Assembly (NCBI GenBank): GCA_964499695.1
Contig: CAZCMD010000003.1
Location: 12,842 to 76,841, forward strand
DNA from: an uncultured Desulfatiglans sp.
Lineage (GTDB): Bacteria > Desulfobacterota > DSM-4660 > Desulfatiglandales > HGW-15
Direction: 5' to 3'
Length of the DNA: 64,000 nt
The notes beneath the pieces are model-generated. The model saw only the letters and a program-made list of their open reading frames with translations. It searched no databases and was not told where the DNA came from. The stretch's first letter is position 1; each line of letters begins with the position of its first letter. The position numbers and the translations under genes were made by a program. Below, piece by piece: positions 7,108 to 64,000 of the stretch.

Positions 7108-7190
7108 AGGGTTACAGGAAAGCCGATCTCTCCGGTCATCACAGTAGATCGGGGAGATCGGAAGGATATTATATTAATGGAGAATCGATA

Positions 7191-8216
7191 ATGATGTCCA
7201 ATAAACTGTTTTACTTATTGCGTCTTATTCTTCTATCTCTGATTTTTTCTTCATGCATGACAGGGTGTAACAATACTGATCCTGCTGAGCCGGAGAACAA
7301 CCAAAATACTGGTTTTAGTGCACAGGTGATCAAACATACAGATAAGCTGTATGATGTTTCCGTTGCCGGTTCCGGTAATGTCTGGGTAGTAGGATATTTT
7401 GGCGTGATCTTTCATTCCACTGACAACGGTCTGAACTGGATCAAAATAGATGCCGGCACAAAGGCATCTCTTTTAGGGGTCAGTTTTGTAAATGAAAAAA
7501 CGGGATGGATTGTGGGTGATCAGGGTACCATTCTCCATACGGTTGACGGAGGTCAAACCTGGGAAAGACAAAAAAGCCCGGTAGCAAATGAAAAGCTTCT
7601 GAAAGTCCAGTTCATAAATGATAAACAGGGATGGATTGTCGGCACCTTCGGACTTGTCCTGTACACCGGAGATGATGGCATGAACTGGGAGCGACTTCCA
7701 TTTACCGAGGATGTGATTCTGAATGACCTCTGTTTTATTAATCCAAATCAGGGATGGATTGCCGGTGAATTCGGAATGGTACTTTATACTGAAGACGGAG
7801 GAAAGACATGGGTAAAACAGCTTGAAGATGAAATGGGTAGGAAGATGTTCGGAATTGCATTTATAGATTCCCTTCATGGGATCGTTGTCGGAAATGAAGG
7901 AGTTATCTACACAACCAGAAACGGCGGCAAAGATTGGGAACTTAAAAGCACAGAAAATGGTGACACCCTTTTGAAGGTGGCATTTGCGGATGACACTCAT
8001 GCAACTGCTGTTGGTCTCAGGGGGTGCATGACTGCAACCGAGGACGGTGGAGATAACTGGAGATCGGTCTGCCCCCTGAACCACTTTACATGGCTTTCAG
8101 GTATAGCCTATGACAAAAGAGGAAGAGGCTTTGCTGTGGGTGATGGCGGAAATATTTTGACGAGCAATGATTCAGGTCTTGGCTGGGCGCCCTATAATCA
8201 GCCAGCACAAAAATAA
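7191..8216 (+). CDS. Ycf48-like / BNR (Asp-box) beta-propeller lipoprotein
   Basis: Lipobox-like IFSSC. Seven Asp-box repeats: STDNGLNW, TVDGGQTW, TGDDGMNW, TEDGGKTW, TRNGGKDW, TEDGGDNW, SNDSGLGW. Confidence 0.75.
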   Translation: MMSNKLFYLLRLILLSLIFSSCMTGCNNTDPAEPENNQNTGFSAQVIKHTDKLYDVSVAGSGNVWVVGYFGVIFHSTDNGLNWIKIDAGTKASLLGVSFVNEKTGWIVGDQGTILHTVDGGQTWERQKSPVANEKLLKVQFINDKQGWIVGTFGLVLYTGDDGMNWERLPFTEDVILNDLCFINPNQGWIAGEFGMVLYTEDGGKTWVKQLEDEMGRKMFGIAFIDSLHGIVVGNEGVIYTTRNGGKDWELKSTENGDTLLKVAFADDTHATAVGLRGCMTATEDGGDNWRSVCPLNHFTWLSGIAYDKRGRGFAVGDGGNILTSNDSGLGWAPYNQPAQK

Positions 8217-19587: not shown

Positions 19588-19742
19588 TGTTCATCCAAAA
19601 ACTGATGTTTTTGTTTGAAAGCGGTCAGCTATCAGCGTTCAGCTTTCAGCAAAAGGCATATAAAATAAAGTTTTAGCTGACAGCTGATAGCTGAGTGCTG
19701 ACAGCTCAATCTAAAATTGATATATATAGATTGACACCAATT
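19584..19742 (+). repeat. MITE-like CAGC-rich repeat, copy A (degenerate ends)
   Basis: tcatccaaaaa...gcggtcagctatcagcgttcagctttcagcaaaagg...gctgacagctgatagctga aligns with the copies at 53737 and 56851(rc). The right end gacaccaatt resembles the TIR gacactaatta. Confidence 0.6.
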
Positions 19743-47169: not shown

Positions 47170-47296
47170 TTATGGAATTGGGGGCAATGAACATCTCAGT
47201 ACTATTCCTGACCACATATGCTGTTCTGATCATTGGAGGCTGGGTCAATAAGGATGGAATTTATTTTCAACTTAAACATTGCAAAGGAGTAAGAAT

Positions 47297-48088
47297 GTGA
47301 TACATGCAAATGGTTTATTTAAGGGATTGGAAAATTATAATATCTATTTCCAGAAATGGTCGCCTGAAGGAAAGCCAAGAGCCGTAATATTAATAGCACA
47401 CGGTTATGCTGAACACAGCGGGCGTTACATGAATGTGGTAAACCACTTCATACCATCAGGTTATCTGGTTTACGCTCTGGATCATCGCGGTCATGGCAAA
47501 TCAGAGGGCAGCCTCAATGAGATCAAGGATTTTTCAGTATTTGTTGCTGATCTCAGAACATTTTTTACTATCATCAGGAAAGAATTTCCTGTTGAAAACA
47601 TTTTCCTGATAGGTCACAGCATGGGGTCACTCATCAGCCTTTTATACTCACTTGATTACCAGCAAGAACTGGCGGGATTGGTGATCTCAGGGGGCGGTCT
47701 CCCAAAGCAGGGTGATCCGCCGTTACCCAGGCGACCGGCTAATCAACCCTTGGATTCTTCATTCCTCAGTCGTGATCCGGAGGTAATCAAAGCCTATGAA
47801 AACGATCCACTGGTTTATAGGGGTCCCATACCGCAATCGATTGAATCCGGTATGGTAAAAGGACTAAATCAGCTTTCCATGGGAGTGAATAAAATAAAAC
47901 TGCCTGTAATCATAATGGCTGGAGATGGCTGTACGGATGGCGCCAGAAGTAAAAACCTGTATGACAGCATCGGTTCAAAAGATAAGACGCTTAAACGTTA
48001 TCCGGGTTTAATGCACGAGATATTCAATGAACCTGAATACCCTCATGTAATGGCTGATATGGAAGTATGGATGGAAGAACATATATAA
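47297..48088 (+). CDS. alpha/beta hydrolase, monoacylglycerol lipase/lysophospholipase-like
   Basis: ORF 47279..48088 (TTG). GTG 47297 follows AAAGGAG. Motifs HGYAEHSGRY, DHRGHGKSEG and GHSMGS. Confidence 0.75.
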   Translation: MIHANGLFKGLENYNIYFQKWSPEGKPRAVILIAHGYAEHSGRYMNVVNHFIPSGYLVYALDHRGHGKSEGSLNEIKDFSVFVADLRTFFTIIRKEFPVENIFLIGHSMGSLISLLYSLDYQQELAGLVISGGGLPKQGDPPLPRRPANQPLDSSFLSRDPEVIKAYENDPLVYRGPIPQSIESGMVKGLNQLSMGVNKIKLPVIIMAGDGCTDGARSKNLYDSIGSKDKTLKRYPGLMHEIFNEPEYPHVMADMEVWMEEHI

Positions 48089-48105
48089 TATGGAATAGGA
48101 AATAA

Positions 48106-49041
48106 ATGAGAACAATAAAAATAATTTACAGATCTTCAAGCAGGGCAGCTATTACATTTTTTCTGATAGTGTTTTTGCTAATGGCTATTGATTCTTCAAC
48201 TTATTCACAGGAAACAATCCGGCTCTGGGAAGGAAAGGCACCTGGATCAGAGAAGTGGACCCACCAGGAAAAAACCTCAACATTTCGCGGTGGAGGAACA
48301 ATAGTACAGGATGTTGTTGATCCGACAATAACAGCGTACCTCCCTGATCCATCCACTGCCAATGGCGCAGCAGTCATTGTCTGCCCCGGAGGGGCATTCC
48401 GTATGCTGAGCCTGGATGGAGAGGGTAAAAATGTTGCCGAATGTCTGACCAGCAAGGGTTTTGCCGCTTTTGTACTTAAATATCGATTGTACAAAGATGA
48501 TGTATCAAAAGGTATGATGGCACCAAAAATACCTTCTGAAATCAAGTTGTCTTTAAAAAACGCCAATGCGAACCCTGCACCGGACAATCAGGAGCTCAAC
48601 AATGTAATCCGCCTCGCAACAGAGGACGGGCAGCAGGCCATTCGTCTTGTCCGCAAAAACGCAAATAAATGGAATATTAATCCGGAAAAGGTAGGCATTA
48701 TGGGTTTTTCCGCGGGAGGGGGTGTAGCAGTGGGGACTGCCCTTCTGGATGACCCGGAAGGTTATCCCAATTTTATTGTCAGCCTGTATGGCCCTTCCAT
48801 GGTTGACGTTCGTGTCCCGGCCAATGCACCACCGCTTTTTATTGCTGTTGCAGCCAATCATAAGCCTGTATCTATGGGATGTGTTGCGCTCTATAATGTA
48901 TGGAACGAGGCGGGTAAATCAGCAGAACTTCATGTTTTTTCAAAGGGTACAGGACCATTCAGTATCAAGAAACAGGGATTACCAAGTGATGCCTGGCCTG
49001 AGCTTTTCATGGTCTGGATAAAAGGAGAAGGACTGATTTAA
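48106..49041 (+). CDS. secreted alpha/beta hydrolase (esterase/lipase, BD-FAE/acetyl-esterase-like)
   Basis: Signal peptide, VIVCPGGAF (oxyanion region) and GFSAGGG nucleophile elbow. Confidence 0.7.
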   Translation: MRTIKIIYRSSSRAAITFFLIVFLLMAIDSSTYSQETIRLWEGKAPGSEKWTHQEKTSTFRGGGTIVQDVVDPTITAYLPDPSTANGAAVIVCPGGAFRMLSLDGEGKNVAECLTSKGFAAFVLKYRLYKDDVSKGMMAPKIPSEIKLSLKNANANPAPDNQELNNVIRLATEDGQQAIRLVRKNANKWNINPEKVGIMGFSAGGGVAVGTALLDDPEGYPNFIVSLYGPSMVDVRVPANAPPLFIAVAANHKPVSMGCVALYNVWNEAGKSAELHVFSKGTGPFSIKKQGLPSDAWPELFMVWIKGEGLI

Positions 49042-49094
49042 CATAGCGTTAATCAATCCCGACTAAAACTTTAAAGGAATACACAGGTTAAAAA

Positions 49095-50381
49095 ATGCCG
49101 GATACTGTTTTCATCTGCATGGCAGCAATTATTTTAGTGATACTGGTTGGCTATTTCACCAGGACTAATATCGGACTATGGGCTATTACCGCTTCCTATA
49201 TTCTTGGCGTTTTTGTGCTTGACTTAAATCCCAGGGATATTGTTACACTCTGGCCCATAAAGATTTTCCTGATGCTTTTTTCAGTGACCTTCTTTTACGG
49301 GTATTCGGTCCTGAACGGTTCCCTTGAGAAACTTTCATTGAAGATTGTTTACGCCTCAAGAAAATTCCCATGGCTCATTGCAGTAACTCTTTTTTTAATA
49401 GCGATCTTTGTATCCGCTATCGGGGCTGGAGACGGTGCAACCGTCATGCTGATCCCTATTGCCATATCCATAGCAAAAATAACCCGTATGCATTATCTCC
49501 TTGCATCGGTTTCTGTTGTATCAGGGATCAGTATAGGAGGATTTTCACCAATAAGCACCATAGGTATATTTATCAGGGAACTTGCGGATCAGGTAGGCGG
49601 TTATGGTCCTGATGCAGTCAATAATTACGGTAACATTGCTATGTTACAGGCTGCTCTCCTGTTTTCCATTATATTCATTCTTTCATACCTCTTTTTAAAG
49701 GGCTACAGGGTAAAGGCCCATGAACTTGAAAAACCCGAACCCTTCAGCCGGGAGCAAATAAAAACACTTATTGTTATCGGTATTTTTATCGTTTCTCTTC
49801 TTGCCCCGCCTCTTTTAAAGGTATTATTTCCGCAAACAACCTTTTTCAGTAGATTGAATGACAATATATATCTGACATTTATTGCCTTTATGGCTTCGAT
49901 CCTGTGCAGGCTGTTAAACCTTGGCGATGAAAAAAAGGTGTTTGCACGTGTGCCCTGGCATGCCCTCACAACAATATGCGGTATGGGGATGCTGATTGCA
50001 GTTGCAGGTAAGACCGGCATAATTGAAATCATGTCAGGGTACCTGTCAGACAGCAGTCTATCAGGACAACTGGTACAGGTTTTACTTTCGGTTTTTGCCG
50101 GAATTTTGAGCCTTTTTGTGAGCGGTTTTGTTGTTAACACCACCTTCTTTGCCCTTGTTCCAGGTCTTGCGACCGGATTATCATACTCCCCCGGACTGTT
50201 TTTTTCAGCAATAGCCGTTAGCGCAATAGCAACTTCCGTATCTCCTTTTTCAGGAAGCGGAGGATTAGTAGTGGCATGCGTTGATGATGAAAAACAGCGT
50301 TCAAGGATTTTTAACAGTTTATTAATATGGCCTTTTATTAATTTGCTCATATATATCGGCATCATCTTAACTGGAATATAA
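49095..50381 (+). CDS. ion-transporter-superfamily permease (CitMHS/ArsB-NhaD/SLC13-like)
   Basis: 428 aa, entirely hydrophobic with about 10-12 TM segments and an internal-repeat appearance. The family call is approximate. Confidence 0.5.
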   Translation: MPDTVFICMAAIILVILVGYFTRTNIGLWAITASYILGVFVLDLNPRDIVTLWPIKIFLMLFSVTFFYGYSVLNGSLEKLSLKIVYASRKFPWLIAVTLFLIAIFVSAIGAGDGATVMLIPIAISIAKITRMHYLLASVSVVSGISIGGFSPISTIGIFIRELADQVGGYGPDAVNNYGNIAMLQAALLFSIIFILSYLFLKGYRVKAHELEKPEPFSREQIKTLIVIGIFIVSLLAPPLLKVLFPQTTFFSRLNDNIYLTFIAFMASILCRLLNLGDEKKVFARVPWHALTTICGMGMLIAVAGKTGIIEIMSGYLSDSSLSGQLVQVLLSVFAGILSLFVSGFVVNTTFFALVPGLATGLSYSPGLFFSAIAVSAIATSVSPFSGSGGLVVACVDDEKQRSRIFNSLLIWPFINLLIYIGIILTGI

Positions 50382-50395
50382 AGGAGGGTATAAAC

Positions 50396-51925
50396 ATGTA
50401 TCTTAAAAAAGTGATTACCGGACTGTCTGTTTTATTCCTATCCACATGTATTATTTTATCAGGCTGCACAAAACCTGAAGAAATAATCGAAAAAGCGGCT
50501 GCGCCTGCACCTTTATCCGATCCATTAAAGATAGATACCGGGTATATCTCAGGGACCCTGATCGGTGATATCGATAACCCGATAAGGGCCTACCGCGGGA
50601 TACCCTATGCAGCGCCTCCGGTAGGAGATTTAAGATGGAAACCGCCGCAACCGGCCACACCATGGAAAGAGATACGTCAGTGTACGGCATTTACAAAAAC
50701 ACCTCCACAGGCAGGAATGGAAGGGTTAAAGCAGGAGCCACAGGGTGAAGACTGCCTTTACCTTAATGTAATGACCCCTGCAAAAACAGTTGGAGAATCC
50801 CTGCCTGTAATGGTATGGCTGCACGGAGGCGGATACTCTTCAGGATCAGGCAATGATAATCTCTGCAATCTGCATCGCCTGCCTCAACAGGGCGTGGTTG
50901 TCGTTAATGTTACAATGAGGCTTAATACATTCGGCCTTCTTGCCCATCCCCTTTTGACCGCTGAGTCACCTGATCATTCATCAGGAAACTATATGTTTCT
51001 CGATATGATAGCTGCGTTAAACTGGGTTAAAAGAAACATATCGGTATTCGGAGGAAACCCGGATAATGTTACCATATTCGGAGAATCAGGAGGCGGATCA
51101 AAGGTCTCAACACTGATGGCTTCTCCAATGGCAAAGGGTCTGTTTCACAGGGCCATCTGTGAGAGCGGAACCTCCATCGGTGGTTTTCTCAATGGCATAA
51201 GTCTGAAGCAAATGGAGGAGATGGGGGTCAAATTATTTGCAAAACTTGGTGTCGACAAAGAGGCCGATCCCTTGAAGGCTGCAAGGGCCCTTCCATTTGA
51301 AAAGATCATGGAGGCAAGAGAGGCCATGATGAAGGAAATGCAGGGTAATAAAACAGGTATAAGCACTGATGATGCTACTATAGACGGATGGTTTCTACCC
51401 AAATCACCACTGGAGCTTTTTGAGTCAGAGAATTATAACGCCGTACCCTTAATCACCGTAGCTAACCTGGGTGAAATAACCGGGCCGGGAGGTTTACTCT
51501 TGCCTCAGCTTATACCCGCCTATGTGAACATGCATGAATCCCAGATCAAGGCCGGTGTGAAGAGTTATGCAGCCATATTTGATCAGGTCCCGGGTAAGTG
51601 GCGGGCAGCAGGTGCAGTATCCACACATGCAATGGAGGTGTTGTATGTATTCGGGGATTACGACAACCGCAGCGGTTGGTGGCCTTTAATGTATGGCCTT
51701 GCAAAACAATCAGGTGCAAAGGATCAGAATGATCCGGGGCTAGCTGAAGCGGACAGAAGGGTCTCGGAAGCAATGATGAAAATGTGGGCGCAGTTTGCCA
51801 AAACAGGGGACCCCAACGTGGAGGGAATGGCACAATGGCCGGCCTATAGCAAGGATGGAGATAATTATATGTACATTATTGATCCGCTGGAGATAAAGAC
51901 CGGATTTTCGAAAATAAAACCTTAA
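50396..51925 (+). CDS. type-B carboxylesterase (lipoprotein)
   Basis: Lipobox LSGC. Motifs YRGIPYAAPPVGDLRW, EDCLYLNV, WLHGGGY and FGESGGG. Confidence 0.85.
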   Translation: MYLKKVITGLSVLFLSTCIILSGCTKPEEIIEKAAAPAPLSDPLKIDTGYISGTLIGDIDNPIRAYRGIPYAAPPVGDLRWKPPQPATPWKEIRQCTAFTKTPPQAGMEGLKQEPQGEDCLYLNVMTPAKTVGESLPVMVWLHGGGYSSGSGNDNLCNLHRLPQQGVVVVNVTMRLNTFGLLAHPLLTAESPDHSSGNYMFLDMIAALNWVKRNISVFGGNPDNVTIFGESGGGSKVSTLMASPMAKGLFHRAICESGTSIGGFLNGISLKQMEEMGVKLFAKLGVDKEADPLKAARALPFEKIMEAREAMMKEMQGNKTGISTDDATIDGWFLPKSPLELFESENYNAVPLITVANLGEITGPGGLLLPQLIPAYVNMHESQIKAGVKSYAAIFDQVPGKWRAAGAVSTHAMEVLYVFGDYDNRSGWWPLMYGLAKQSGAKDQNDPGLAEADRRVSEAMMKMWAQFAKTGDPNVEGMAQWPAYSKDGDNYMYIIDPLEIKTGFSKIKP

Positions 51926-51973
51926 TTTTAAATATAATGAACAGAACCACCTGTCATCAATGAGGAAAATATT

Positions 51974-52513
51974 ATGAAAAATTTGATTACCCTGTTCGTA
52001 TGTTTTGGTTTGACCTATTTTTTATTCATCAATATGGCATTCGCTGATGTTTATGCAGATGACCGCGCCGCCATTATGGAGCTGCAAAGCCGCTATGTTT
52101 TTGCACTGGATTTTAGAGATGCTGAAACATATGCCTCCACCTTTACCGAGGATGGCATATTAAACTGGGCGCGTGGTGATATAAAGGGCAGGAAGGCGAT
52201 CTATGATTTCATTGCTTCAGGGACATATGACCCCGCCGGTAGTGCTGAAAAAGGTAAATGGCCTGCTGCCTCACGCCATTTTGTAACAAATCAGATTATT
52301 AAGGTGGATGGCAATACAGCCAGGTCATTCAGTTACTGGTTTGAGGCAACAAATAACACAGCAGACCGAAAGACAATGGTATTAGGGTTATTCGGACATT
52401 ATGAAGATGAACTGGTAAAGATTGATGGTCAATGGTATTTTAAAAAACGCGCTATATACAATGAAGGGCTGGAAGGCCGACATAAGGCAGGGGAAGAGAA
52501 TCCTGCGAGGTGA
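51974..52513 (+). CDS. secreted SnoaL-like / NTF2-fold protein
   Basis: Signal peptide. 'DRAAIMELQSRYVFALDFRDAETYASTFTEDG' is typical of SnoaL_4-type domains. Confidence 0.6.
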   Translation: MKNLITLFVCFGLTYFLFINMAFADVYADDRAAIMELQSRYVFALDFRDAETYASTFTEDGILNWARGDIKGRKAIYDFIASGTYDPAGSAEKGKWPAASRHFVTNQIIKVDGNTARSFSYWFEATNNTADRKTMVLGLFGHYEDELVKIDGQWYFKKRAIYNEGLEGRHKAGEENPAR

Positions 52514-52544
52514 ATGCCAATAAAAGGAGACTAGACAATAAACT

Positions 52545-53717
52545 ATGTCGTTATTTATCAGATTGAACATTCTAATTTTAATTTTTATTTTTTCTATTGG
52601 ATGCGAAACGATTCAACCTGTACCGGATGGAAATTTTAAGAAAGAAGGCGAAAAAGATATGATGCTCGTTAAGGAAATATTTGGGGAATTTGAAGGCAAA
52701 AAAGTTGATTTATATACATTGAAGAACGCTCACGGCATGGAGGTAAAAATAACCAATTATGGCGGTATTATCACCTCCATCAAGGTCCCGGACAAAGGCA
52801 ATAAATTTGGTGATGTTGTCCTCGGGTTTAATAATCTTATGACTTATCTGGGCAACAATCCTTTTTTTGGAGCTATCATAGGCAGGTACGCCAACAGGAT
52901 AGGCAATGCAAAGTTTTCTATTGATGGTAAGGAATACACACTGGCTAAAAACAACTGGGCGAACAGTTTACACGGTGGGGTCAAGGGTTTTGACAAGGTC
53001 CTGTGGGAAGCAGAACCGGTTACCGGTAAAGAGAGCCAGTCTCTGAAACTGACCTATATGAGTAAGGATGGAGAGGAAGGATTTCCCGGAAATCTTAATG
53101 TTACCGTAACCTACACCCTTAAAGAGGATAATTCATTTCAGATAGACTACCATGCAACAACAGATAAAACCACTGTTGTAAACCTTTCTAACCATACATA
53201 CTGGAATCTGGCAGGGGAAGGATCTGGAAATATTCTTGATCATCAGTTGATGCTGAACGCCAGCGCCTTTACGCCTGTAGACCGCGGGTCAATACCTACC
53301 GGGGAAATCCGGTCAGTTGAAGGCACACCCATGGATTTCAGAAGGCCTGAAGCTATAGGCAAAAGAATAGGCGCAGATTATGAGCAGCTTAAATTTAGCA
53401 ATGGTTATGACCATAACTGGGTAATAGACTCCAGCGATAATGCAAAACCAACACTGGCTGCAACGGTTTATGAACCGGTCAGCGGAAGATACATGGAGGT
53501 ATATACAACAGAACCCGGGGTTCAGTTTTACAGCGGAAATTTCCTGAATGATAAAATTATAGGAAAAAGCGGTAAAGGTTATGGCCCAAGAAGCGCGTTA
53601 TGTCTTGAAACACAGCATTATCCTGATTCACCGAACAAACCGGACTTTCCACCGGTTGTACTGAAACCAGGAGAGACATACAGGACAACAACTATCTATA
53701 AGTTTTCAGTCAGGTAA
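52545..53717 (+). CDS. galM: aldose 1-epimerase (galactose mutarotase), lipoprotein form
   Basis: Lipobox FSIGC, GRYANRI, NSLHGG..GFDK..W and a C-terminal E..H.PDSPN. Confidence 0.85.
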   Translation: MSLFIRLNILILIFIFSIGCETIQPVPDGNFKKEGEKDMMLVKEIFGEFEGKKVDLYTLKNAHGMEVKITNYGGIITSIKVPDKGNKFGDVVLGFNNLMTYLGNNPFFGAIIGRYANRIGNAKFSIDGKEYTLAKNNWANSLHGGVKGFDKVLWEAEPVTGKESQSLKLTYMSKDGEEGFPGNLNVTVTYTLKEDNSFQIDYHATTDKTTVVNLSNHTYWNLAGEGSGNILDHQLMLNASAFTPVDRGSIPTGEIRSVEGTPMDFRRPEAIGKRIGADYEQLKFSNGYDHNWVIDSSDNAKPTLAATVYEPVSGRYMEVYTTEPGVQFYSGNFLNDKIIGKSGKGYGPRSALCLETQHYPDSPNKPDFPPVVLKPGETYRTTTIYKFSVR

Positions 53718-53736: not shown

Positions 53737-53867
53737 TTAATTAGTGTCCATCCAAAAAGTGTCGTCTTTGGATTCAAGCGGTCAGCAATTAGCGTTCAGC
53801 TTTCAGCAAAAGGCTTTCAAACCAGGGAGTTAGCTGATCGCTGACTGCTGAAAGCTACATCCAGAAT
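53737..53867 (+). repeat. MITE-like CAGC-rich repeat, copy B
   Basis: ttaattagtgtccatccaaaaa...gcggtcagcaattagcgttcagctttcagcaaaagg...gctgactgctgaaagctacatccagaat aligns end to end with the rc of 56879-57016. Confidence 0.75.
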
Positions 53868-56850: not shown

Positions 56851-57016
56851 TAATTAGTGTCAATACAGAAAGAGGCAAATTCTGGATGGAGCTTTCAGCA
56901 GTCAGCTATCAGCTGTCAGCCAAATCTTTATTTTTAATACCTTTCGCTGAAAGCTGAACGCTTATGGCTGACCGCTTGAATCCAAAAACAACAGTTTTTG
57001 GATGGACACTAATTAA
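56851..57016 (-). repeat. MITE-like CAGC-rich repeat, copy C, with intact 11-bp terminal inverted repeats
   Basis: taattagtgtc (56851-56861) and gacactaatta (57005-57015) are perfect TIRs. The core 56879-57016 is the rc of copy B. Confidence 0.75.
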
Positions 57017-57252
57017 CCGTACCACCTTTCTTTTTTCTTTTTCACATTTTTTTAATTCTTTTTTGACATTTTTTTCACATATGACCTGTCATAGTCAATT
57101 CCAGTTTTATGACCAGTGAAATTCTGTAAGCAGATGATGAGCCGGCTTTGTTTGCTGTCAGATATTTTGAGTCAGTAATATGGCATGGAGGGAAACAATA
57201 TCCAAGCGTTTACCTCCTCTGAAAATTAACAGAAAACCAGGAGGATTAAAAA

Positions 57253-58233
57253 TTGTTTAATACAATAATTAAAAAACATAAATGGGTAACTGTAATATCA
57301 ATATTTCTATTTGTTTCTTTAGGAATAGTTGCTTCATCAGGCGCCAAAGAAATTTCAGAAGCTGTAAAGGTTAAAATAGAAAAACAATATCCGGGTGCTG
57401 AGATCGTGGAAATCAGGGAAGACACCTGGAATGGCAAACCGGTAACTGAAGTGGAAGCAAGGACAGCAGAAGGCAGAGTATATGAGTTCATTATCTCACA
57501 AGATGAAAAAATCCTGCATGTTGAGGAAGAAAAAGGGCTGCCTTTAATAGGAGGAGAGTTGTCCCTGGGCGTTGCAGCGTTTTTCGAGAGAGATGTCTAT
57601 AGAGGAGTGGATGATGAAGTGCAGCCTGTGCCATTTCTGAGATACGAGAACGGGCCATTTGAAATTATGGCAAAGGATGAATTGACCCTGTCATATAAAA
57701 TATTTCAAGGGGAATCATACTCTGTTGCTGCTTTGGGAGCATATAATTTTGAGGAGGGCTATGATCCCGACGACAGCAGTTATCTGAAAGGTATGGATAA
57801 ATTAAGTTCAACATACAGTGTCGGGCTGGAAGGCGAAATGAAGGTGAGAGAGTTTATAACAGGCATTGAAGTGCTCCACGATATAAGTAGCGAGAAAAGC
57901 GGTCAGGAAGCTGAATTTTCCGTGGAGTATCCATGGCACTTTGCAGGATTTAAACTGAATGCAGGATTAAATGTGTCCTGGCTTAGCAGAAAAAGGGTTA
58001 ACTATTTATATGGTGTCTCAGCCCGGGAAGCTACTTTAGAACGCCCATTTTATAACCCCAAATCAAGTTTTGAAGTAGGCGCCGAACTCATGCTTGAAAG
58101 GCCGTTCCTTAAAAATTATACATTTGTAACCCTGATAGAAGCAAACAAGCTTGGCAGTGAAATAAGCGACAGCCCTATTGTAGATGATGATGTTGAGATA
58201 AGTGCTGCCGTGGGAATAATGTATAGCTTTTAA
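57253..58233 (+). CDS. PepSY-like domain fused to a MipA/OmpV-family outer-membrane beta-barrel
   Basis: TTG start after AGGAGG, then a signal peptide. 'VKVKIEKQYPGAEIVEIRED..NGKPVTEVEART.EGRVYEFIIS' is the PepSY-like pattern. The remainder (GVAAFFERDVYRGVDDEVQPVPFLRYENGPFE..., C-terminal MYSF) is MipA-like. Confidence 0.6.
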   Translation: MFNTIIKKHKWVTVISIFLFVSLGIVASSGAKEISEAVKVKIEKQYPGAEIVEIREDTWNGKPVTEVEARTAEGRVYEFIISQDEKILHVEEEKGLPLIGGELSLGVAAFFERDVYRGVDDEVQPVPFLRYENGPFEIMAKDELTLSYKIFQGESYSVAALGAYNFEEGYDPDDSSYLKGMDKLSSTYSVGLEGEMKVREFITGIEVLHDISSEKSGQEAEFSVEYPWHFAGFKLNAGLNVSWLSRKRVNYLYGVSAREATLERPFYNPKSSFEVGAELMLERPFLKNYTFVTLIEANKLGSEISDSPIVDDDVEISAAVGIMYSF

Positions 58234-58253
58234 CAGGAGTAAGCGATCATATC

Positions 58254-59663
58254 ATGGCTGAAATAACAGGTAATTCTTTTAAAAAATCAGCAGTAAACCT
58301 GGGATTCCTATTGTTTTTATCCGGTTGTGGCCTTGCCCCTGTCCATAATGATTTTAATGCAGTGGAGAAATTCCAGCAGGAATATTCGGGTGATATTTTA
58401 TCGGTACCTGAAGGACAGCCGCAGTGGCAGGATAGTTTTCCATCTAAAAATCTGCATGATGATCTCGTTAAGCTGATCAGGCAAAATCATGAAGTGGAGG
58501 CTGCCGCAGCACGTGTTGAGCAGGCGGTTGCTGCCCATCGTGTTGAATACTCATTTTTGTTTCCTTCAATAGATGCAGGGGCAGGCTTTGACCGTTCAAA
58601 GATTGGGGGCAATAGCAGTCAGGCTGAGCATGTCACAGGAAACATATTTTCCTTGAGTGGCATCATGAAGTGGGAACCGGATATATGGGGGCAGTTAAGG
58701 GCGAAAGAAAAGGCCTCCTCTCTGACTGTCAAAGAAAGAGAGGCATTGCTGGATAAGAAAAAATTGGATCTTCAGGATCTTCTGGTCCAGGCATGGATAA
58801 ACTACCATGTATCAAAAAAGCTTGAGAATGTCCTGGCAGAGCAGCATGAAACGAATCTTGATTTTCTTGCCTTGACAGAAAACTATTATAAGCACGGACA
58901 GGGAAGCAGTATTGATATACTGCAGCAGCAGGGGCGATTGCTGGCAACCGAAAAGGCCATGCCTGAAATTATTAACAAAAAAAAGAGTGCTGCCAACGCC
59001 TATAGGGTTTTGATGGGAACTGTTCCAAATGGCGCCGATCTTATTGATGATGAGTTGCCTTCAATTGAAGAATTGACCGTGGTTGCATCCCCTTTTGAAC
59101 TTTTTATCAACCGGGCGGATTTACGGGCGGGTTTTCTCGCTCTACAGGTAGCTGACCGGAATCTGGCCGCTTCAGTCGCCGAAAGGTTCCCGCGGCTTTC
59201 GCTTGGTGTTTCATATGGAAGAAACAGGCAAAGTTTCTCCTCAGTTGAAACTGAAACTGTCTTGAATCTGACAAGCAGTCTGCTTGCACCCATATTTGAT
59301 GCAGGGCGTCTTAAGGCACAGATGAATTTACGAGAGGCAGAGGTCTGTGAATCACTTGCACTACTGGAACAGACAGTCCTTGAAGCAGTGAGTGAGGTTG
59401 AAGATGCTGTAAACAGGGAACAGGGGTTATTTGATAAGCAGAAAATCCTGAAACGGCAAATATTAAAGGCCCAAAAAACCGTTGATAATGCAAGGCTGTT
59501 TTATATTAACGGAAAGGGATCTTATCTTACTGTCCTTTCTTCATTAATAGATCTTCAGAACCTTCAGGTTGAGGAAACTGAACTTCAGGAAGAGCTCCTT
59601 ATAAACAGATGCAGCCTATTGAGGGCCTTGGGTGCAGGATGGAGTATAAAGCATGAAAGTTAA
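58254..59663 (+). CDS. outer-membrane efflux lipoprotein (OMF/NodT-TolC family)
   Basis: Lipobox LSGC and two coiled-coil/beta repeat halves typical of OMF proteins. Confidence 0.8.
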   Translation: MAEITGNSFKKSAVNLGFLLFLSGCGLAPVHNDFNAVEKFQQEYSGDILSVPEGQPQWQDSFPSKNLHDDLVKLIRQNHEVEAAAARVEQAVAAHRVEYSFLFPSIDAGAGFDRSKIGGNSSQAEHVTGNIFSLSGIMKWEPDIWGQLRAKEKASSLTVKEREALLDKKKLDLQDLLVQAWINYHVSKKLENVLAEQHETNLDFLALTENYYKHGQGSSIDILQQQGRLLATEKAMPEIINKKKSAANAYRVLMGTVPNGADLIDDELPSIEELTVVASPFELFINRADLRAGFLALQVADRNLAASVAERFPRLSLGVSYGRNRQSFSSVETETVLNLTSSLLAPIFDAGRLKAQMNLREAEVCESLALLEQTVLEAVSEVEDAVNREQGLFDKQKILKRQILKAQKTVDNARLFYINGKGSYLTVLSSLIDLQNLQVEETELQEELLINRCSLLRALGAGWSIKHES

Positions 59664-60795
59664 TAAAAAGGAATTCTGGTATGTTCTCTTAGTTTTAATT
59701 ACAGGCTGTGTATTAACACTGGTCCTGGTTTTGGGTGAAGAGGAAAATCAATTCCCTCAGAATATTGATCATACCATTAATGTTAAAATTGTTACTGTTA
59801 AAAAGTCAGACTATCAGTTAATGATACCGGCATGGGGTTTTGTAGAACCTGCTGAAACAGTAAATATCAGGAGTGAATTAGCCGGTAAAATTGATTTTAC
59901 AGGCAAGGATGTCTTTAAAGGTGCAAAAATACAAAAAGGTAAATTGCTTTTTTCACTTGATAATAGAGACTATCTGAATGCTCTTGCAGAGGCCGAAGCG
60001 GCTAATGAACAGGCTCAGCAGGCCCTGGAGATGGAAATGGGCTGGCAGAATGTTGTTGAAAAAGAGATGGAACTGCTGGATGATCCGGAGGTGCTCGATA
60101 ATAAAAACCCTCTTATGCTTCGCGAGCCCCAGCTTAAAGAGCTGAAAGCAGGGTTGAAAGCTACTGAAGCCCGGCTGGCCCAGGCAATGCTGAATCTTGA
60201 AAAAACCCGGATATTCTCCCCCTGTACAGGCATCATTCTTGATGAATCAGTTGCCATTGATCAGTTTACTGATCCCGGGGAGAGTCCCATAAAATTTGCC
60301 TGTACTGAAAGTTATCATATCATTGCAAACTTTTCCTCAAGGTATTCACTGGATTCTGAAGAGGGTAACGTGACAATTCAGGTTGGCCCTGATCAATATA
60401 CCGGGCATATTAAGTCAGTAATCCCGCAGATAGACAGTGAAACAAGGCAAAACCAGGCCCTTGTTGAATTTACGGCAGAGAATTTGACAATGGGTTCCCA
60501 TGCGGTTCTAACCCTTCCCGGTAAATGTCAAAAAAATATTGTTGTTCTTGATAAGGCCGCTCTGCGCTCCTCCGGTACCCTATGGGTACTCAGCCCGGAA
60601 AACACCCTGGAGATACGCAATGTTTTGATCTCCGGTGAAGATAACAGAAATATTTGCGTGACGAAAGGTCTGAATGAAGGAGAAAAGGTAATACTTTCTC
60701 ATATCGCGAGTCCTTTGCAGGGTATGAAACTGAATGCTGTAAAGTCAGAAACGATTGTTTTACAGGATGAAGAGAAAAGCGGAGGGCAGATATAA
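59653..60795 (+). CDS. RND efflux periplasmic adaptor (MFP)
   Basis: N-terminal TM anchor, a coiled-coil hairpin (LNALAEAEAANEQAQQAL ... LKATEARLAQAMLNLEKT) and barrel-sandwich motifs. Overlaps the OMF gene by 11 nt. Confidence 0.8.
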   Translation: MKVNKKEFWYVLLVLITGCVLTLVLVLGEEENQFPQNIDHTINVKIVTVKKSDYQLMIPAWGFVEPAETVNIRSELAGKIDFTGKDVFKGAKIQKGKLLFSLDNRDYLNALAEAEAANEQAQQALEMEMGWQNVVEKEMELLDDPEVLDNKNPLMLREPQLKELKAGLKATEARLAQAMLNLEKTRIFSPCTGIILDESVAIDQFTDPGESPIKFACTESYHIIANFSSRYSLDSEEGNVTIQVGPDQYTGHIKSVIPQIDSETRQNQALVEFTAENLTMGSHAVLTLPGKCQKNIVVLDKAALRSSGTLWVLSPENTLEIRNVLISGEDNRNICVTKGLNEGEKVILSHIASPLQGMKLNAVKSETIVLQDEEKSGGQI

Positions 60796-63700
60796 TGAAC
60801 AGATTTCTTCATTCTTTGTTAAACCGAAAGGCATTTGCAAACAGCATAATGTTTTTGCTGATTGCGGGAGGCCTGATCTCCGCCATGAATATGAGGCAGG
60901 AGCTCTGGCCTGAAATGAAAGAACGTGAAATAGAGGTGGAAGTGGAACTGCCCGGTGCCTCACCCGATGATATTAAAAACTCTGTGATTTTATTAATTGA
61001 GAATGCAGTTCGCGGCCTGGATGGAATTAGACATGTTGACTCTGAGGCAAGTGAAGGTTCAGGAATGGTTACATTAAGCCTTCTTGAAGGAGCAGATGTA
61101 CAGAGGGTACTGGGTGATGTTAAAATTGCATTAGATCGCATTACCAACTTCCCCCAGGAAGCGGAAAAACCTGTTGTAAATGTTCCATCTCAAGTTGAAA
61201 AAGCCCTCTCAATAACCGTATCAGGCGATCAGCCTCTCATGTGGCTTTTGAGAACCGCTGAATCAATCAGGGATGATTTACGCACAGAAATAGGACTTAT
61301 GAAAGTTGAAATAGCCTTTCCCCCTGAACCTGAAATATCCGTAGAGGTAACAGAAAATATACTCAAAGAATATGGAATTACACTTGAAGATATAGCTCAA
61401 AAGGTTCGTGCAAATTCACTTGATCTTCCGGGGGGGAATATCTTATCTGAAAACTCCGATATCGCAATAAGGACTTCTGAACGCCGGGAATGGGCAGATA
61501 CCTTTTCCGATATAGTAATAGCGCAAACACCCTCCGGAAGGCCTTTGAAATTATCAGAGATTGCTGTTTTAAAAGACACATTTGGCGATTTTACAATTGA
61601 ATCCTGGTTTAATGGAAACCCTGCCATTTTGATCGATGTATACGCTGTTGGCGATGACTCTCCGATATCGGTTGAAGATAAAGTAATAGAATACCTTGAG
61701 CATACTGCAAGAGAAAAATACAGGGGTGTGGACATTAACATTTTTGAAAACGAGGCAAGCGCCTACCGCAGCCGAATGAACCTGCTTGTAGACAATGCAA
61801 TAATGGGACTTATACTGGTTATCTTTAGTCTTGGCATCTTTCTTGAACCTACTCTCGCTTTCTGGGTAATGATCGGCATGCTGACATCAGTTCTTGGCGG
61901 GTTATTGATTTTCCCTTTATTTAATGCCTCTCTGAATATGATCTCATTGTTTGCCTTTATCGTAGTCATAGGCATTGTAGTTGATGACACCATAATGATG
62001 GGAGAAGCCATTCACTCATACAGATGCAAAGGAATGGATCATTTGTCTGCTGCCGTGATGGGGCTTAAAGATATGTTTCTTCCGATTCTCATGGCAACAT
62101 CAACAACAATTCTGGTATTTATACCCATGTTTTATGTGCCCGGTTCAATGGGGGTTGTATTTAGACAGATACCGGCTGTGATTGTCGCAATCCTGCTTGT
62201 TTCAGTTGTTGAGTCAACTTTTCTCCTGTCAGTTCATTTGGCCGAAGACGGCCATGAAAGGTCCTGGAAAAAGCTTCTTGGCCGTCCTCAGCAAATTTTT
62301 AATAAAAGGCTTGAGTTTTTTATACAGGGCAGATTTAAAAAATGCATTGAGTTGTGCCTTAAATATCCTTTTGTCGCCATATCTGTCTTTATTTCTCTGA
62401 TGTTATTCACAGCAGGAGGTGTTGCGAGTGGCCTTTTAGAATTCAGTTTTACGCCTGCTATTGAGTCAGATACTGTTATTGCGCAGGCTGCGCTGCCTTA
62501 TGGCTCTCCCAAGGCCGAGTCAGTAGAAATTCAAAGGAGAATAGTCGATGCTGCTCACCGGGTGCTGAGGAATAATAAAATGGAATCAAAAGGCATATTT
62601 TCATTGATTGGAACAAGGCTTGAGGAGGGAGAAATAGAGGTGGAAACCCTTGCAGGATCTCATTATATCTCGGTTCTTTTTGGGTTGCCTCCCAGGGAGA
62701 AGAGAACTATTTCCGGCCCCGAATTTGCTCTTGAGTGGCAAAAGGCATTTGGCGACAGGGGAAATCTCGAGTCAATAAATTTTACCGGAGAGACAAAGAT
62801 AACAGGAGGTGAACCGATAAGGCTTGATGTTTTTCATCCGGATCCTGATAAAGCAGAAAAAGCTGCATCCTTTCTTGGTAACAAAATGAGAGAAATCCCG
62901 GGATTATCATCAGTCGATGATGGTATTCATGCAGGAAAGCCCCAGTTAAAACTGAGTTTTAAAAAGGAGGGGCTCAAGATGGGGATTACTGCAGAGGATA
63001 TGGCAAATCAGGTCAGGCACAGGTTTTACGGGGCAGAGGCATATCGTTTTGTAAGAGACGGTAATGAAGTAAAGGTGATGATAAGGTTGAGTGAAAAAGA
63101 ACGCACAGACATCAGTGCCATTCACGGGGTAATGCTTAAAAACCAGTATGGTTCGCTGGTTCCGCTTTCCCAGGTAGCGGAGATTACGCGCGATCATACC
63201 AGGACAAACCTGGTGCGAAGGGACGGAAAGCGTATCTTCCCCGTAACCGCTGATATAATGACAGGTATCAGTGATGATTTTATTGAGGATGAACTTGAAG
63301 AAAAGGTGTTATCTGTACTGGCTGATAAATTCCCCGGAGTATCAGTAACCGAGGGAGGGGAGGAAGAGGAAATAGATGATGCTCTGAACGCGCTGGGAAT
63401 TGGTTTTCTGGCGGTTCTGGGTGTTATATATCTTCTTTTTTCCCTCTATTTTAATTCCTGGAAACAGCCTCTTCTTATATTGTCGGTAATCCCATTCAGT
63501 TTTATTGGTGCAGTATGGGGTCACATTGTTCTCGGTTATGATCTCTCGATAGTATCAATAATGGGTATTATTGCCATGACCGGAGTAGTAATAAATGATT
63601 CACTGGTTCTTGTCACAGATTTTAACAGAAATAGAAGTAAGGATATGCCAATTCACAGGGGCATTATAAAAGCTGTATGTGAAAGATTCAGACCGGTTAT

Positions 63701-63878
63701 CCTTACTTCTCTGACCACTATTGTTGGCCTTGTACCTCTTTTGTTTGAAACATCGGAGCAGGCCCAGTTCCTTATCCCTGCGGCAATTTCAATCAGCTTT
63801 GGTATTGCTTTTGGAACCTTGATAACCCTTACGATGATACCTGCTTATCTATGGATTTTTTCAAAAAGAGAGCTATAA
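60795..63878 (+). CDS. RND efflux permease (AcrB/HAE family)
   Basis: 1027 aa with 12 TM segments and two large periplasmic loops. The start overlaps the MFP stop (TAATG). Confidence 0.9.
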   Translation: MNRFLHSLLNRKAFANSIMFLLIAGGLISAMNMRQELWPEMKEREIEVEVELPGASPDDIKNSVILLIENAVRGLDGIRHVDSEASEGSGMVTLSLLEGADVQRVLGDVKIALDRITNFPQEAEKPVVNVPSQVEKALSITVSGDQPLMWLLRTAESIRDDLRTEIGLMKVEIAFPPEPEISVEVTENILKEYGITLEDIAQKVRANSLDLPGGNILSENSDIAIRTSERREWADTFSDIVIAQTPSGRPLKLSEIAVLKDTFGDFTIESWFNGNPAILIDVYAVGDDSPISVEDKVIEYLEHTAREKYRGVDINIFENEASAYRSRMNLLVDNAIMGLILVIFSLGIFLEPTLAFWVMIGMLTSVLGGLLIFPLFNASLNMISLFAFIVVIGIVVDDTIMMGEAIHSYRCKGMDHLSAAVMGLKDMFLPILMATSTTILVFIPMFYVPGSMGVVFRQIPAVIVAILLVSVVESTFLLSVHLAEDGHERSWKKLLGRPQQIFNKRLEFFIQGRFKKCIELCLKYPFVAISVFISLMLFTAGGVASGLLEFSFTPAIESDTVIAQAALPYGSPKAESVEIQRRIVDAAHRVLRNNKMESKGIFSLIGTRLEEGEIEVETLAGSHYISVLFGLPPREKRTISGPEFALEWQKAFGDRGNLESINFTGETKITGGEPIRLDVFHPDPDKAEKAASFLGNKMREIPGLSSVDDGIHAGKPQLKLSFKKEGLKMGITAEDMANQVRHRFYGAEAYRFVRDGNEVKVMIRLSEKERTDISAIHGVMLKNQYGSLVPLSQVAEITRDHTRTNLVRRDGKRIFPVTADIMTGISDDFIEDELEEKVLSVLADKFPGVSVTEGGEEEEIDDALNALGIGFLAVLGVIYLLFSLYFNSWKQPLLILSVIPFSFIGAVWGHIVLGYDLSIVSIMGIIAMTGVVINDSLVLVTDFNRNRSKDMPIHRGIIKAVCERFRPVILTSLTTIVGLVPLLFETSEQAQFLIPAAISISFGIAFGTLITLTMIPAYLWIFSKREL

Positions 63879-63885
63879 TAGACAC

Positions 63886-64000
63886 ATGACAAATATTAAA
63901 AAAACATCACATGAATCGCTCCGGGTGCTCATTGTTGAAGACAATGAGGATATTGCCTCAAATATCGGTGACTACCTTGAGGATAAGGGCCACATTGTCG
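63886..64000 (+). CDS. partial response regulator receiver domain (N-terminus)
   Basis: Not in the ORF track because it runs off the right edge. MTNIKKTSHESLRVLIVEDNEDIASNIGDYLEDKGHIV is the typical REC-domain beta1-alpha1. Confidence 0.6.
   Translation, partial: MTNIKKTSHESLRVLIVEDNEDIASNIGDYLEDKGHIV

Follow-up and report, generated by a model that had tools for sequence, protein, structure and literature searches.

We analyzed a 64,000-nt stretch of a contig from an uncultured Desulfatiglans sp., hereafter called the window, in whose numbering all coordinates are given unless another locus is named. Positions 57253-64000 are occupied by consecutive open reading frames (ORFs) on the plus strand, which encode an exported fusion of a PepSY domain to a MipA/OmpV-type β-barrel, the three components of an efflux pump from the resistance-nodulation-division (RND) group, namely an outer membrane factor (OMF), a membrane fusion protein (MFP) and an RND permease, and the beginning of a response regulator. 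All ORFs and junctions were found as listed in a preliminary description of this DNA, including the tight coupling of the pump genes by an 11-nt OMF/MFP overlap and a TAATG junction between the MFP and RND genes, and the location of a gene with a receiver (REC) domain directly behind the RND gene:

57239-57244, plus strand: Shine-Dalgarno sequence AGGAGG of the fusion gene, whose TTG start follows after 8 nt.
57253-58233, plus strand: PepSY–MipA fusion gene, 326 aa, TTG start.
58254-59663, plus strand: gene for an OMF lipoprotein of the NodT type with an LSGC lipobox, 469 aa.
59653-60795, plus strand: gene for the MFP, a periplasmic adaptor, 380 aa, overlapping the OMF gene by 11 nt.
60795-63878, plus strand: gene for the RND inner-membrane transporter, 1027 aa, joined to the MFP gene by a TAATG junction.
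63886-64000, plus strand: gene for an OmpR/PhoB-family response regulator, of which only the start lies in the window (ATG at 63886).

The OMF gene follows the fusion gene after a gap of 20 nt, and 7 nt separate the RND stop codon from the regulator ATG. The 38-aa REC fragment of the regulator encoded within the window gave a weak match by itself (E = 0.086). An exact-protein look-up of the RND permease led to a second contig, L001, which is identical to window positions 59202-64000 and runs 2.1 kb further. It supplies the complete 233-aa regulator with REC and Trans_reg_C domains, ending at window-equivalent position 64587, and, 2 nt downstream, a gene for a 424-aa histidine kinase (window-equivalent 64590-65864, outside the window), thus providing the kinase that had been anticipated beyond position 64000. 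Since this identical, overlapping contig adds the rest of the regulator and the kinase, the operon comprises six genes in about 8.6 kb, and the fusion, OMF, MFP, RND, regulator and kinase genes were shown in silico to form a tightly (translationally) coupled unit. The arrangement of AGGAGG and TTG start is also kept in the 79%-identical fusion gene of an orthologous locus, L002. A terminator scan, which performed no better than on shuffled sequences, yielded none in the 234 bp past the kinase gene, and an Rfam scan of the 700-bp upstream region and the 5’-untranslated region gave no riboswitch or known RNA near any gathering score.

Hidden Markov model (HMM) searches assigned the OMF protein to OEP (8.6e-35) and NodT (TIGR01845, 2e-57), the MFP protein to RND_mfp (TIGR01730, 1.4e-36) and the RND permease to ACR_tran (1e-131), so that all components of a tripartite RND efflux system are encoded in one operon. 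The permease scored 370 bits against the multidrug-type model NF033617 and 204 bits against the CusA/CzcA-family model TIGR00914, the best stretch of the latter, like a ZneA match in the PDB, being confined to the C-terminal third. Its nearest solved relatives are the multidrug pumps MdtB and MexB. Furthermore, its transmembrane helix 4 (TM4) carries a DD pair (IVVDDTIMMGE); a DD pair in this helix is characteristic of drug RND pumps, while metal pumps show a D..D..E signature. The pump is therefore predicted to be a divergent drug-type RND pump; its identification as a heavy-metal efflux pump was disfavored because the multidrug models outscore CusA/CzcA and MdtB and MexB are the closest solved structures.

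The first protein of the operon can be divided as follows:

57253-57345, plus strand: signal peptide (residues 1-31), likely cleaved after SSGA as read from the sequence.
57346-57528, plus strand: PepSY-fold domain (residues 32-92), a helix and a four-stranded sheet, net charge -6.
57529-57555, plus strand: linker EKGLPLIGG (residues 93-101), family consensus EEEKGLPWIGGEL.
57556-58233 including the stop codon, plus strand: MipA/OmpV barrel (residues 102-326), net charge -18, with a C-terminal Y-S-F β-signal.

This is the order of signal peptide, PepSY module and MipA/OmpV barrel in one polypeptide that the preliminary description had proposed. The barrel is matched by MipA (PF06629) with 136.4 bits against a cut-off of 24.2 (E = 2e-39) over residues 105-326, spanning the whole model, and the same model matches 42 of 42 relatives. 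For the N-terminal module, the expected family was PepSY_like, and here the assignment had to be changed: PF11396 gave no match at E ≤ 1 in the window protein and only weak ones in 3 of 42 relatives (best 2e-3), whereas PepSY (PF03413) reached 22.8 bits (E = 1.2e-4), just below its gathering score of 24, and was found at E ≤ 0.01 in 24 of the 42 family members (best 1e-6); four relatives carry a precomputed PF03413 call. Over 42 full-length relatives the domain has the consensus FPGAxIxE..W.GQ.VTEVEL..DG..YEV..S..GEIL, followed by the linker. When the domain profile was compared with PDB sequences, PepSY chains were matched (9vy3, ‘Propeptide, PepSY’, E = 5.9e-5, and Rv0603). The AlphaFold2 (AF2) model of the whole fusion protein has a predicted local distance difference test (pLDDT) score of 85. 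As the whole model yielded Foldseek results dominated by the barrel, the PepSY domain was also modeled alone; it then appeared as a helix (H6-15) and four strands at a pLDDT of 90, and the structures retrieved were Rv0603 (2lra, template-modeling score 0.64), the BLIP-like 4fr9, CD1622 (4exr), UipA (7ath) and YpmB (2gu3); the E-values of these matches are weak, which is no surprise for a domain of 60 aa. Taken together, HMM, AF2 and Foldseek results identify the N-terminal module as a PepSY-superfamily domain, best named PepSY and not PepSY_like.

As to the remaining parts of the polypeptide, the signal-peptide region is modeled as a helix of residues 2-26 with low pLDDT, and A31 is nearly invariant in the family. 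P97, G100 and G101 of the linker, which has a pLDDT of about 63, are fully invariant. The barrel was predicted with a pLDDT above 90 and has Tsx, PcoB, NanC and OmpG as Foldseek neighbors, the same structural neighbors that have been given for P. aeruginosa MipA (PMC10936184). Its C-terminus (Y324-x-F326) is invariant. The barrel model has 12 strands if the very short strand 136-140 is included, and this count would place the PepSY domain in the periplasm. The protein is strongly acidic, and the mean net charge in the family is -8.5 for the PepSY domain and -28 for the barrel.

The preliminary description had suggested surveying this domain architecture, and the same fusion was indeed recovered in more than 40 independent full-length homologs and is therefore no assembly artefact. 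An exhaustive profile search returned 6026 MipA-family representatives, and among the best 150 about two dozen covered both the PepSY domain and the barrel. Our comparison is based on twelve genome loci plus further metagenome contigs with relatives; the same fusion is present in about 18 distinct related loci, from Desulfobacterota, the cultured gammaproteobacterium Hahella ganghwensis and an alphaproteobacterial metagenome-assembled genome (MAG). The relatives from Desulfobacterota (Desulfatiglandales, Desulfobacterales, Desulfococcus, Desulfopila, Desulfarculaceae, Desulfobulbaceae) are 35-79% identical, and a second clade with about 27% identity, to which the profile search led, comprises Hahella ganghwensis, Kordiimonas and Hyphomicrobiales. 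OMF, MFP and RND genes come directly after the fusion gene in the window and in L002, L003, L004, L007, L008, L009, L010, L016/17, L018, L021-23 and L027/28; L005 and L019, which are truncated, still show the beginning of an OMF gene at this place. The L015 pump operon is convergent on the opposite strand, and the fusion gene of this locus is transcribed together with the two-component system (TCS). Among the Desulfobacterota loci of sufficient length, L014 is the one exception to the succession of fusion, OMF, MFP and RND genes: a gene for a fusion of PepSY to an S15 peptidase precedes the PepSY–MipA gene, with no pump nearby.

Wherever the flanking sequence suffices, the regulator and kinase genes adjoin the fusion locus, except in L021-23, and yet their position varies: downstream on the same strand in the window, L002, L014, L015 and L029, convergent in L003, L007 and L018, divergent upstream in L005, L008, L010 and L016/17, and upstream on the same strand in Hahella and L027/28. 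In the window the regulator is the fourth gene downstream of the fusion gene; it lies nearer in L014, L015, L027 and L029. In Hahella the order is regulator-kinase-fusion-OMF-MFP-RND with a fusion/OMF overlap of 41 nt, in the alphaproteobacterial MAG fusion-regulator-kinase, and in L021-23, which are marine proteobacterial contigs, fusion-OMF-MFP-RND with a fusion/OMF overlap of 11 nt. A linkage that is kept while the gene order is shuffled is a classical sign of functional coupling. The L021-23 contigs also encode, at 6362-7303 on the minus strand and divergent, a protein of 313 aa that has hydrophobic segments in its N-terminal part and a LytTR DNA-binding domain at the C-terminus; this membrane-anchored protein may act as an alternative membrane-bound regulator.

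Upstream of the fusion gene, a candidate regulatory site became apparent:

57040-57078, plus strand: direct repeats TTTCAC / TTTAAT / TTTGAC / TTTCAC with an exact spacing of 11 bp, candidate regulator site.

The four boxes end 175 nt upstream of the fusion start codon. Scanning the window for this pattern at up to 2 mismatches gave one match, compared with none in 100 shuffles. While the upstream regions of the related loci are otherwise unalignable, TTT(C/G)AC repeats at 11-bp spacing are common to most of them: four boxes in the Desulfobacterota core group, two or three recognizable ones elsewhere. In Hahella, two boxes at this spacing precede the regulator gene and two the fusion gene, and another two lie before the alphaproteobacterial fusion gene. 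When up to 4 mismatches in 24 positions were allowed, a scan of 245 kb detected sites only upstream of the module or, where present, of a free PepSY gene. A block of about 110 nt that contains the boxes occurs in both promoters of L015, that of the fusion gene and TCS and that of the separate pump, and the same block lies upstream of the PepSY-peptidase gene in L014. Boxes 3 and 4 (57063-57078) fit exactly the published ColR core consensus, used here as (T/C)(T/C)NA(C/G)NN(T/C)TTTTT(C/G)AC. Exact matches to this consensus numbered nine in 444 kb, in 7 loci (shuffles: mean 0.55, maximum 2), and all nine lie 66-190 bp upstream of the first gene of the module on its strand. Nearly the same sequence has been footprinted as ColR sites in P. 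putida, e.g., at PP0737 (TTTTTTCACGTTTTTTTCACAAC; PMC2689224, Table 1). We infer that the boxes are a candidate site for two dimers of the OmpR-family regulator encoded in the operon, since this is the only DNA-binding protein conserved in the neighborhood.

Further observations concern the DNA on either side of the boxes. Downstream of them, the two L015 promoters and the L014 promoter share a presumed 5’-leader stretch, ATGTTGCxACTGGTTTG..GAAATAAGAATAAGA, evident from sequence conservation:

L015:700-790 and 9815-9900, minus strand: shared presumed 5’-leader stretch.
L014:490-560: the same stretch.

Just upstream of the boxes in the window, positions 56851-57015 hold an element of about 165 bp, bounded by terminal inverted repeats of 21 nt (TAATTAGTGTC...GACACTAATTA) and containing a hairpin, of which two further copies with 87-94% identity occur at 19592-19707 and 53737-53867; it looks like a miniature inverted-repeat transposable element. 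Its end resembles the terminal repeat of an ISL3 element at the same position in L002, a Desulfatiglandales MAG. There, a gene for a 413-aa transposase (L002:8533-9774), ISL3-family-like as judged from its sequence, ends exactly where box 1 would be expected to start, and box 1 is degenerate (ATCCAC), the insertion having clipped the regulatory site.

The kinase supplied by L001 has two transmembrane helices enclosing a periplasmic loop of about 100 aa, followed by HAMP, HisKA and HATPase domains. Within the loop, D39, G94, E97, H106, Y120 and D124 are invariant across 9 Desulfobacterota kinases; the E and H are kept with the same 9-residue spacing in Hahella but not in the alphaproteobacterial kinase. 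The kinase of the window operon further has H35, E38, H96/E97 and H106 as well as FETTE at 128-132 next to TM2, of which H35/E38 and the FETTE (ExxE) motif are not conserved across the kinase family. For comparison, Pseudomonas ColS has a loop of 96 aa with conserved H35, E38, H95/E96 and H105 and an FExRE motif by TM2 (PMC4074579), and its E96/H105 pair has lately been reported as a Cu/Zn site (PMC13524251). Judged from the DNA boxes and the layout of the kinase loop, the TCS looks ColRS-like, and we call it so rather than ColRS because the likeness of the kinase to ColS is one of position and not of alignment. NCBIfam scans of regulator and kinase named no specific system and gave generic OmpR-family matches below cut-offs; the best model for the regulator was the heavy-metal CztR/SilR/CopR subfamily with 177 bits, under its cut-off.

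The PepSY domain of the fusion protein is not the only one in these loci. Free secreted PepSY paralogs of about 100 aa (92-115 aa) are encoded just upstream of the fusion gene in L005, L008, L010, L016/17 and L019 (partial):

L005:482-829: free PepSY gene.
L008:4713-5015: free PepSY gene.
L010:9953-10231: free PepSY gene.
L016:9651-9953: free PepSY gene.
L019:1-198: free PepSY gene (partial).

The free copies are 49-60% identical among themselves, above their likeness to the fused domain next door, and therefore represent old paralogs and not recent duplicates. In L014 (571-2415), a 614-aa S15 hydrolase (X-Pro dipeptidyl-peptidase/CocE-type) carries the same kind of PepSY domain at residues 27-87 (E = 4e-13 with the domain HMM); the operon has the order peptidase, PepSY–MipA, regulator and kinase behind the same boxes, such that its output looks like a peptidase and not a pump. 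Free PepSY proteins and the PepSY-peptidase fusion together suggest that PepSY is a shared handle of envelope proteins in this regulon. Conversely, the plain MipA with the barrel nearest to the fusion family lacks a PepSY domain and yet stands at the head of an efflux-type operon, which begins with MipA and MFP genes (L025:242-3118). Before this operon, at L025:114-165, TTTCAC boxes with a spacing of 11 bp occur four to five times. A split pair of a free PepSY protein and a plain MipA was not encountered; the L025 sequence covers only 241 bp upstream of its MipA gene, L026 lacks both pump and TCS, and in the plain-MipA loci L011-13 no PepSY ORF was detectable with the domain HMM. Finally, the PepSY part of the profile matched a protein of 1870 aa (P0217) in 15 separate stretches, which makes it a giant tandem-PepSY protein.

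With moderate confidence, we view the locus as a self-contained, autoregulated envelope-defense operon that is run by a ColRS-like system and whose PepSY–MipA protein serves as an accessory of the kinase. The stressor to which the kinase responds would be a cationic one acting on the envelope, i.e., metal cations or else membrane-active compounds of cationic/amphipathic nature, and the regulator, once phosphorylated by its kinase, would bind the boxes and turn on the barrel protein, the pump and itself; the pump would then remove the offending compound. In the most speculative step, PepSY–MipA would be seated in the outer membrane, and its acidic PepSY domain would face the periplasm. By analogy with proposals for P. 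aeruginosa MipA and V. cholerae OmpV, the barrel might signal the condition of the outer membrane or serve as a binding site for the stressor, and the PepSY domain might touch the sensor loop of the kinase, as DbfQ does with DbfS. Since the 9-residue linker is too short to span the periplasm, such a contact would most plausibly be made in transit or while the protein is unassembled, making the fusion a reporter of outer-membrane assembly (cf. NlpE-CpxA), or alternatively would proceed by exchange with the free PepSY paralogs.

Several points weigh against this reading, the main objection being one of geometry: a 9-residue linker and a domain of about 60 aa cannot reach a kinase loop of about 100 aa across a normal periplasm. 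The sensing role of PepSY–MipA is drawn wholly from analogy, and the periplasmic placement of its PepSY domain hinges on a count of 12 strands that takes in the very short strand 136-140. The likeness to ColRS consists of a site match and residue positions; a profile search from the kinase sensor domain toward Pseudomonas ColS gave 3 matches and was uninformative. Moreover, tandem 7+4-bp repeats are general to OmpR/PhoB regulators, so that the type of box is by itself no proof of ColR orthology, and a scan for the sigma-70 consensus gave matches no better than shuffles or chance. Regarding gene content, no pump adjoins the fusion gene in L014 and L029, and no TCS was found within 8 kb of the fusion gene in L021-23, which would fit a pump-associated role equally well. 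Last, the operon stems from an uncultured member of the Desulfobacterota.

A pump-associated role of this kind would make PepSY–MipA an effector and not a sensor, i.e., a co-regulated outer-membrane partner of the pump without influence on kinase activity. Such a partner could act by binding or sequestering the toxic compound, by altering the permeability of the outer membrane or by assisting the OMF. We consider this, the main rival reading, unlikely. In its favor, the fusion gene leads the pump operon as first cistron and is closely coupled to the OMF gene behind it, also in the distant second clade; L021-23 have the pump in the absence of a TCS; a plain MipA without PepSY heads an MFP operon as well (L025); and genes of the MipA/OmpV family are members of regulons for envelope stress, among them the polymyxin-induced regulon of BesRS (PMC9426598). 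Yet the fusion gene stays with the TCS in L014 and L029, where no pump is nearby, and is transcribed with the TCS and not with the pump in L015. It would also be hard to square a pump-specific role with the occurrence of the same type of PepSY domain free or on a peptidase in these TCS loci, and small PepSY proteins are more than 60-fold enriched beside two-component systems, one of them binding its kinase (PMC12714742).

Another possibility is metal-cation homeostasis, where the ColS-like kinase would sense an excess of Zn, Fe, Cu or Mn, the PepSY domain and barrel would bind metal, and pump and barrel would lower the periplasmic or outer-membrane load. In line with it are the ColR-type boxes (PMC2689224), the E97/H106 spacing of the kinase, identical to that of the ColS E96/H105 metal site, together with the ExxE motif by TM2 in the window kinase (PMC4074579, PMC13524251), and the CztR/SilR/CopR subfamily as best, if sub-threshold, NCBIfam model of the regulator. 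PepSY proteins such as UipA bind metals, and UipA is among the Foldseek matches, as PcoB is among the structural neighbors of the strongly acidic fusion protein's barrel. However, the permease scores far better as a multidrug type, has MdtB and MexB as best solved relatives and shows in TM4 the DD pair of drug pumps instead of the D..D..E that the RND literature gives for metal pumps, the kinase family as a whole does not keep the ExxE motif, and most outer-membrane proteins are acidic. We therefore judge this explanation improbable, although it overlaps with the one we prefer, given that the outer membrane is stressed by metals as well as by cationic peptides. Still far less probable is that the barrel is a scaffold for MltA and PBP1B (a penicillin-binding protein, PBP), as originally described for E. 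coli MipA, with the pump adjacency being incidental: only family membership speaks for it, while no MltA, PBP or other murein gene was present in any locus examined, and TCS and pump genes stay linked to the barrel gene from phylum to phylum even where the gene order is rearranged, a conserved synteny that argues against such a role.

For the stressor itself, the preliminary description had envisaged membrane-active phenolics, with reference to an ‘island’ in which the operon would lie. This island is presumably the group of genes at 47279-53717 on the plus strand, coding for a BD-FAE/alpha-beta hydrolase, a CitMHS/MatC-type carrier, a carboxylesterase, a SnoaL-like protein and an aldose 1-epimerase, from which the operon is separated by three minus-strand genes and a 700-bp spacer. 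In L002, the closest orthologous locus, the upstream neighbors are different, namely CoaD, an RlpA-like lipoprotein and the ISL3 transposase. We thus regard the module as self-contained and do not count the upstream esterase/‘polyphenol’ genes as part of it. The idea of a response to phenolics finds no support at the locus; sensitivity of ColRS and DbfQRS to phenol and thymol elsewhere makes it conceivable at most.

The fusion physically joins two candidate parts of a signaling pathway and is hard-wired to its regulator, its pump and a recognizable regulator site, which provides a compact and testable model. A genetic test is possible as the same module exists in the cultured Hahella ganghwensis DSM 17046, where it lies at about 64.3-83.3 kb of AQXX01000124.1. 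Going beyond this, and as a tentative and rather doubtful proposition, the fusion may be a ‘Rosetta stone’ which indicates that MipA/OmpV barrels and DbfQ-type PepSY proteins, published independently of each other in 2024-2025, belong to one trans-envelope signaling route. The barrels have been put forward as polymyxin sensors and are not known to be connected to the kinase, while the PepSY proteins bind kinases and are not known to be connected to the outer membrane. In this scenario, the barrel would read the outer membrane and the PepSY domain would pass the information to the ColS-like kinase, either by assembly-dependent exposure or by exchange with paralogs. The papers on MipA, OmpV and DbfQ each call the signaling route unknown (PMC10936184, PMC12012098, PMC12714742); the Rosetta-stone reading, if true, would answer how outer-membrane damage reaches such kinases and would predict that MipA and PepSY proteins also work together in pathogens, where they are not fused. 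Should PepSY–MipA turn out to be a plain regulon member, the finding would reduce to a well-defined, conserved efflux regulon.

Circuits of MipA, TCS and pump as well as modules of PepSY and TCS are known already. Full-text literature searches for MipA together with PepSY turned up only an unrelated review, and we found no published description of the single-protein fusion, of its location in one operon with pump and regulator, or of its ColR-type site. In outer-membrane envelope-stress reporting by NlpE–CpxA and RcsF–OMP–IgaA, an outer-membrane-anchored protein is proposed to inform an inner-membrane sensor, the signal depending on whether this reporter is correctly assembled. NlpE and RcsF are lipoproteins of unrelated fold, unlike the β-barrel with PepSY considered here, so that the analogy is purely conceptual; NlpE and OmpA have been cited in the context of V. 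cholerae OmpV as well (PMC12012098).

Among the systems with a MipA-family barrel, a close one is ParRS–MipB/MipA–MexXY-OprA of P. aeruginosa, where MipA binds polymyxin and is needed for full ParRS-dependent induction of MexXY, and where two-component genes flank mipA in most taxa (PMC10936184). The preliminary description had referred to work on a MipA-family protein, a partner lipoprotein, a TCS and an RND pump in this organism, in accurate agreement with that study. Both systems have a 12-strand MipA-family barrel beside an OmpR-type TCS and a tripartite RND pump in the output. In the ParRS system the barrel gene is under control of the regulator and the barrel has an acidic interior; we liken the window barrel to it on both counts, with control being suggested here by the boxes. 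There, however, the partner is the separate MipB and the pump is encoded elsewhere in the genome, whereas here PepSY is fused to the N-terminus of the barrel and pump, barrel and regulator share one operon. The boxes fit the published ColR site; positive evidence of this kind was not seen for ParRS, for which no direct comparison with ParR, ParS or a ParR site was made. For the notion of a compact sensor-pump circuit, a regulatory link is seen in silico in the conserved boxes, but the fusion is not a single chain of MipA and its partner lipoprotein: MipB is a β-lactamase-fold lipoprotein with two 8-stranded C-terminal barrels (PMC10936184), a fold unrelated to PepSY, and no gene for a MipB-type lipoprotein was present in the window operon or any related locus. 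The better precedent for the N-terminal domain would be DbfQ (PMC12714742). In V. cholerae and its operon carRS-ompV-virK, a barrel with a C-terminal YxF is likewise co-transcribed with a TCS, and OmpV is needed for induction of the RND pump genes vexAB (PMC12012098); different from the window operon, OmpV lacks PepSY, there is an extra gene (virK), the pump is unlinked, and the main output is lipid A modification (almEFG).

On the side of PepSY, DbfQ is a small periplasmic protein that binds the sensor domain of the DbfS kinase, and outer-membrane damage, polymyxin and thymol activate DbfQRS by a route reported as unknown (PMC12714742). The window operon resembles DbfQRS, a system responding to outer-membrane damage, and P. 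aeruginosa BqsPQRST in encoding an exported PepSY domain a few genes away from a kinase and regulator pair, the regulator lying within four genes, and the tandem arrangement of a free PepSY paralog and the fusion in several loci is reminiscent of bqsP/bqsQ. Unlike DbfQ, the PepSY domain in the window is not a small single-domain protein but is tethered to a 326-aa barrel protein, and the output, known here from sequence alone, is a pump and not biofilm or c-di-GMP.

With Pseudomonas ColRS, finally, the operon shares the exact footprinted ColR consensus and a two-TM kinase with a loop of about 100 aa (96 in ColS) and an E...H pair at the same spacing, as well as, in the window kinase, H35/E38 and an ExxE motif next to TM2. 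Membrane proteins predominate in the ColR regulon (PMC2689224, PMC4074579, PMC13524251). Its known targets are genes for lipid A/LPS (lipopolysaccharide) remodeling (pagL, eptA, PAP2, dgkA, oprQ) and include no MipA barrel or RND pump, and neither ‘MipA’ nor ‘PepSY’ is named in the main text of the ColRS/RaxRH papers searched. With the operon described here, regulation of the ColR type would come to include an RND pump and a MipA barrel and would no longer be confined to Pseudomonas but reach the Desulfobacterota.

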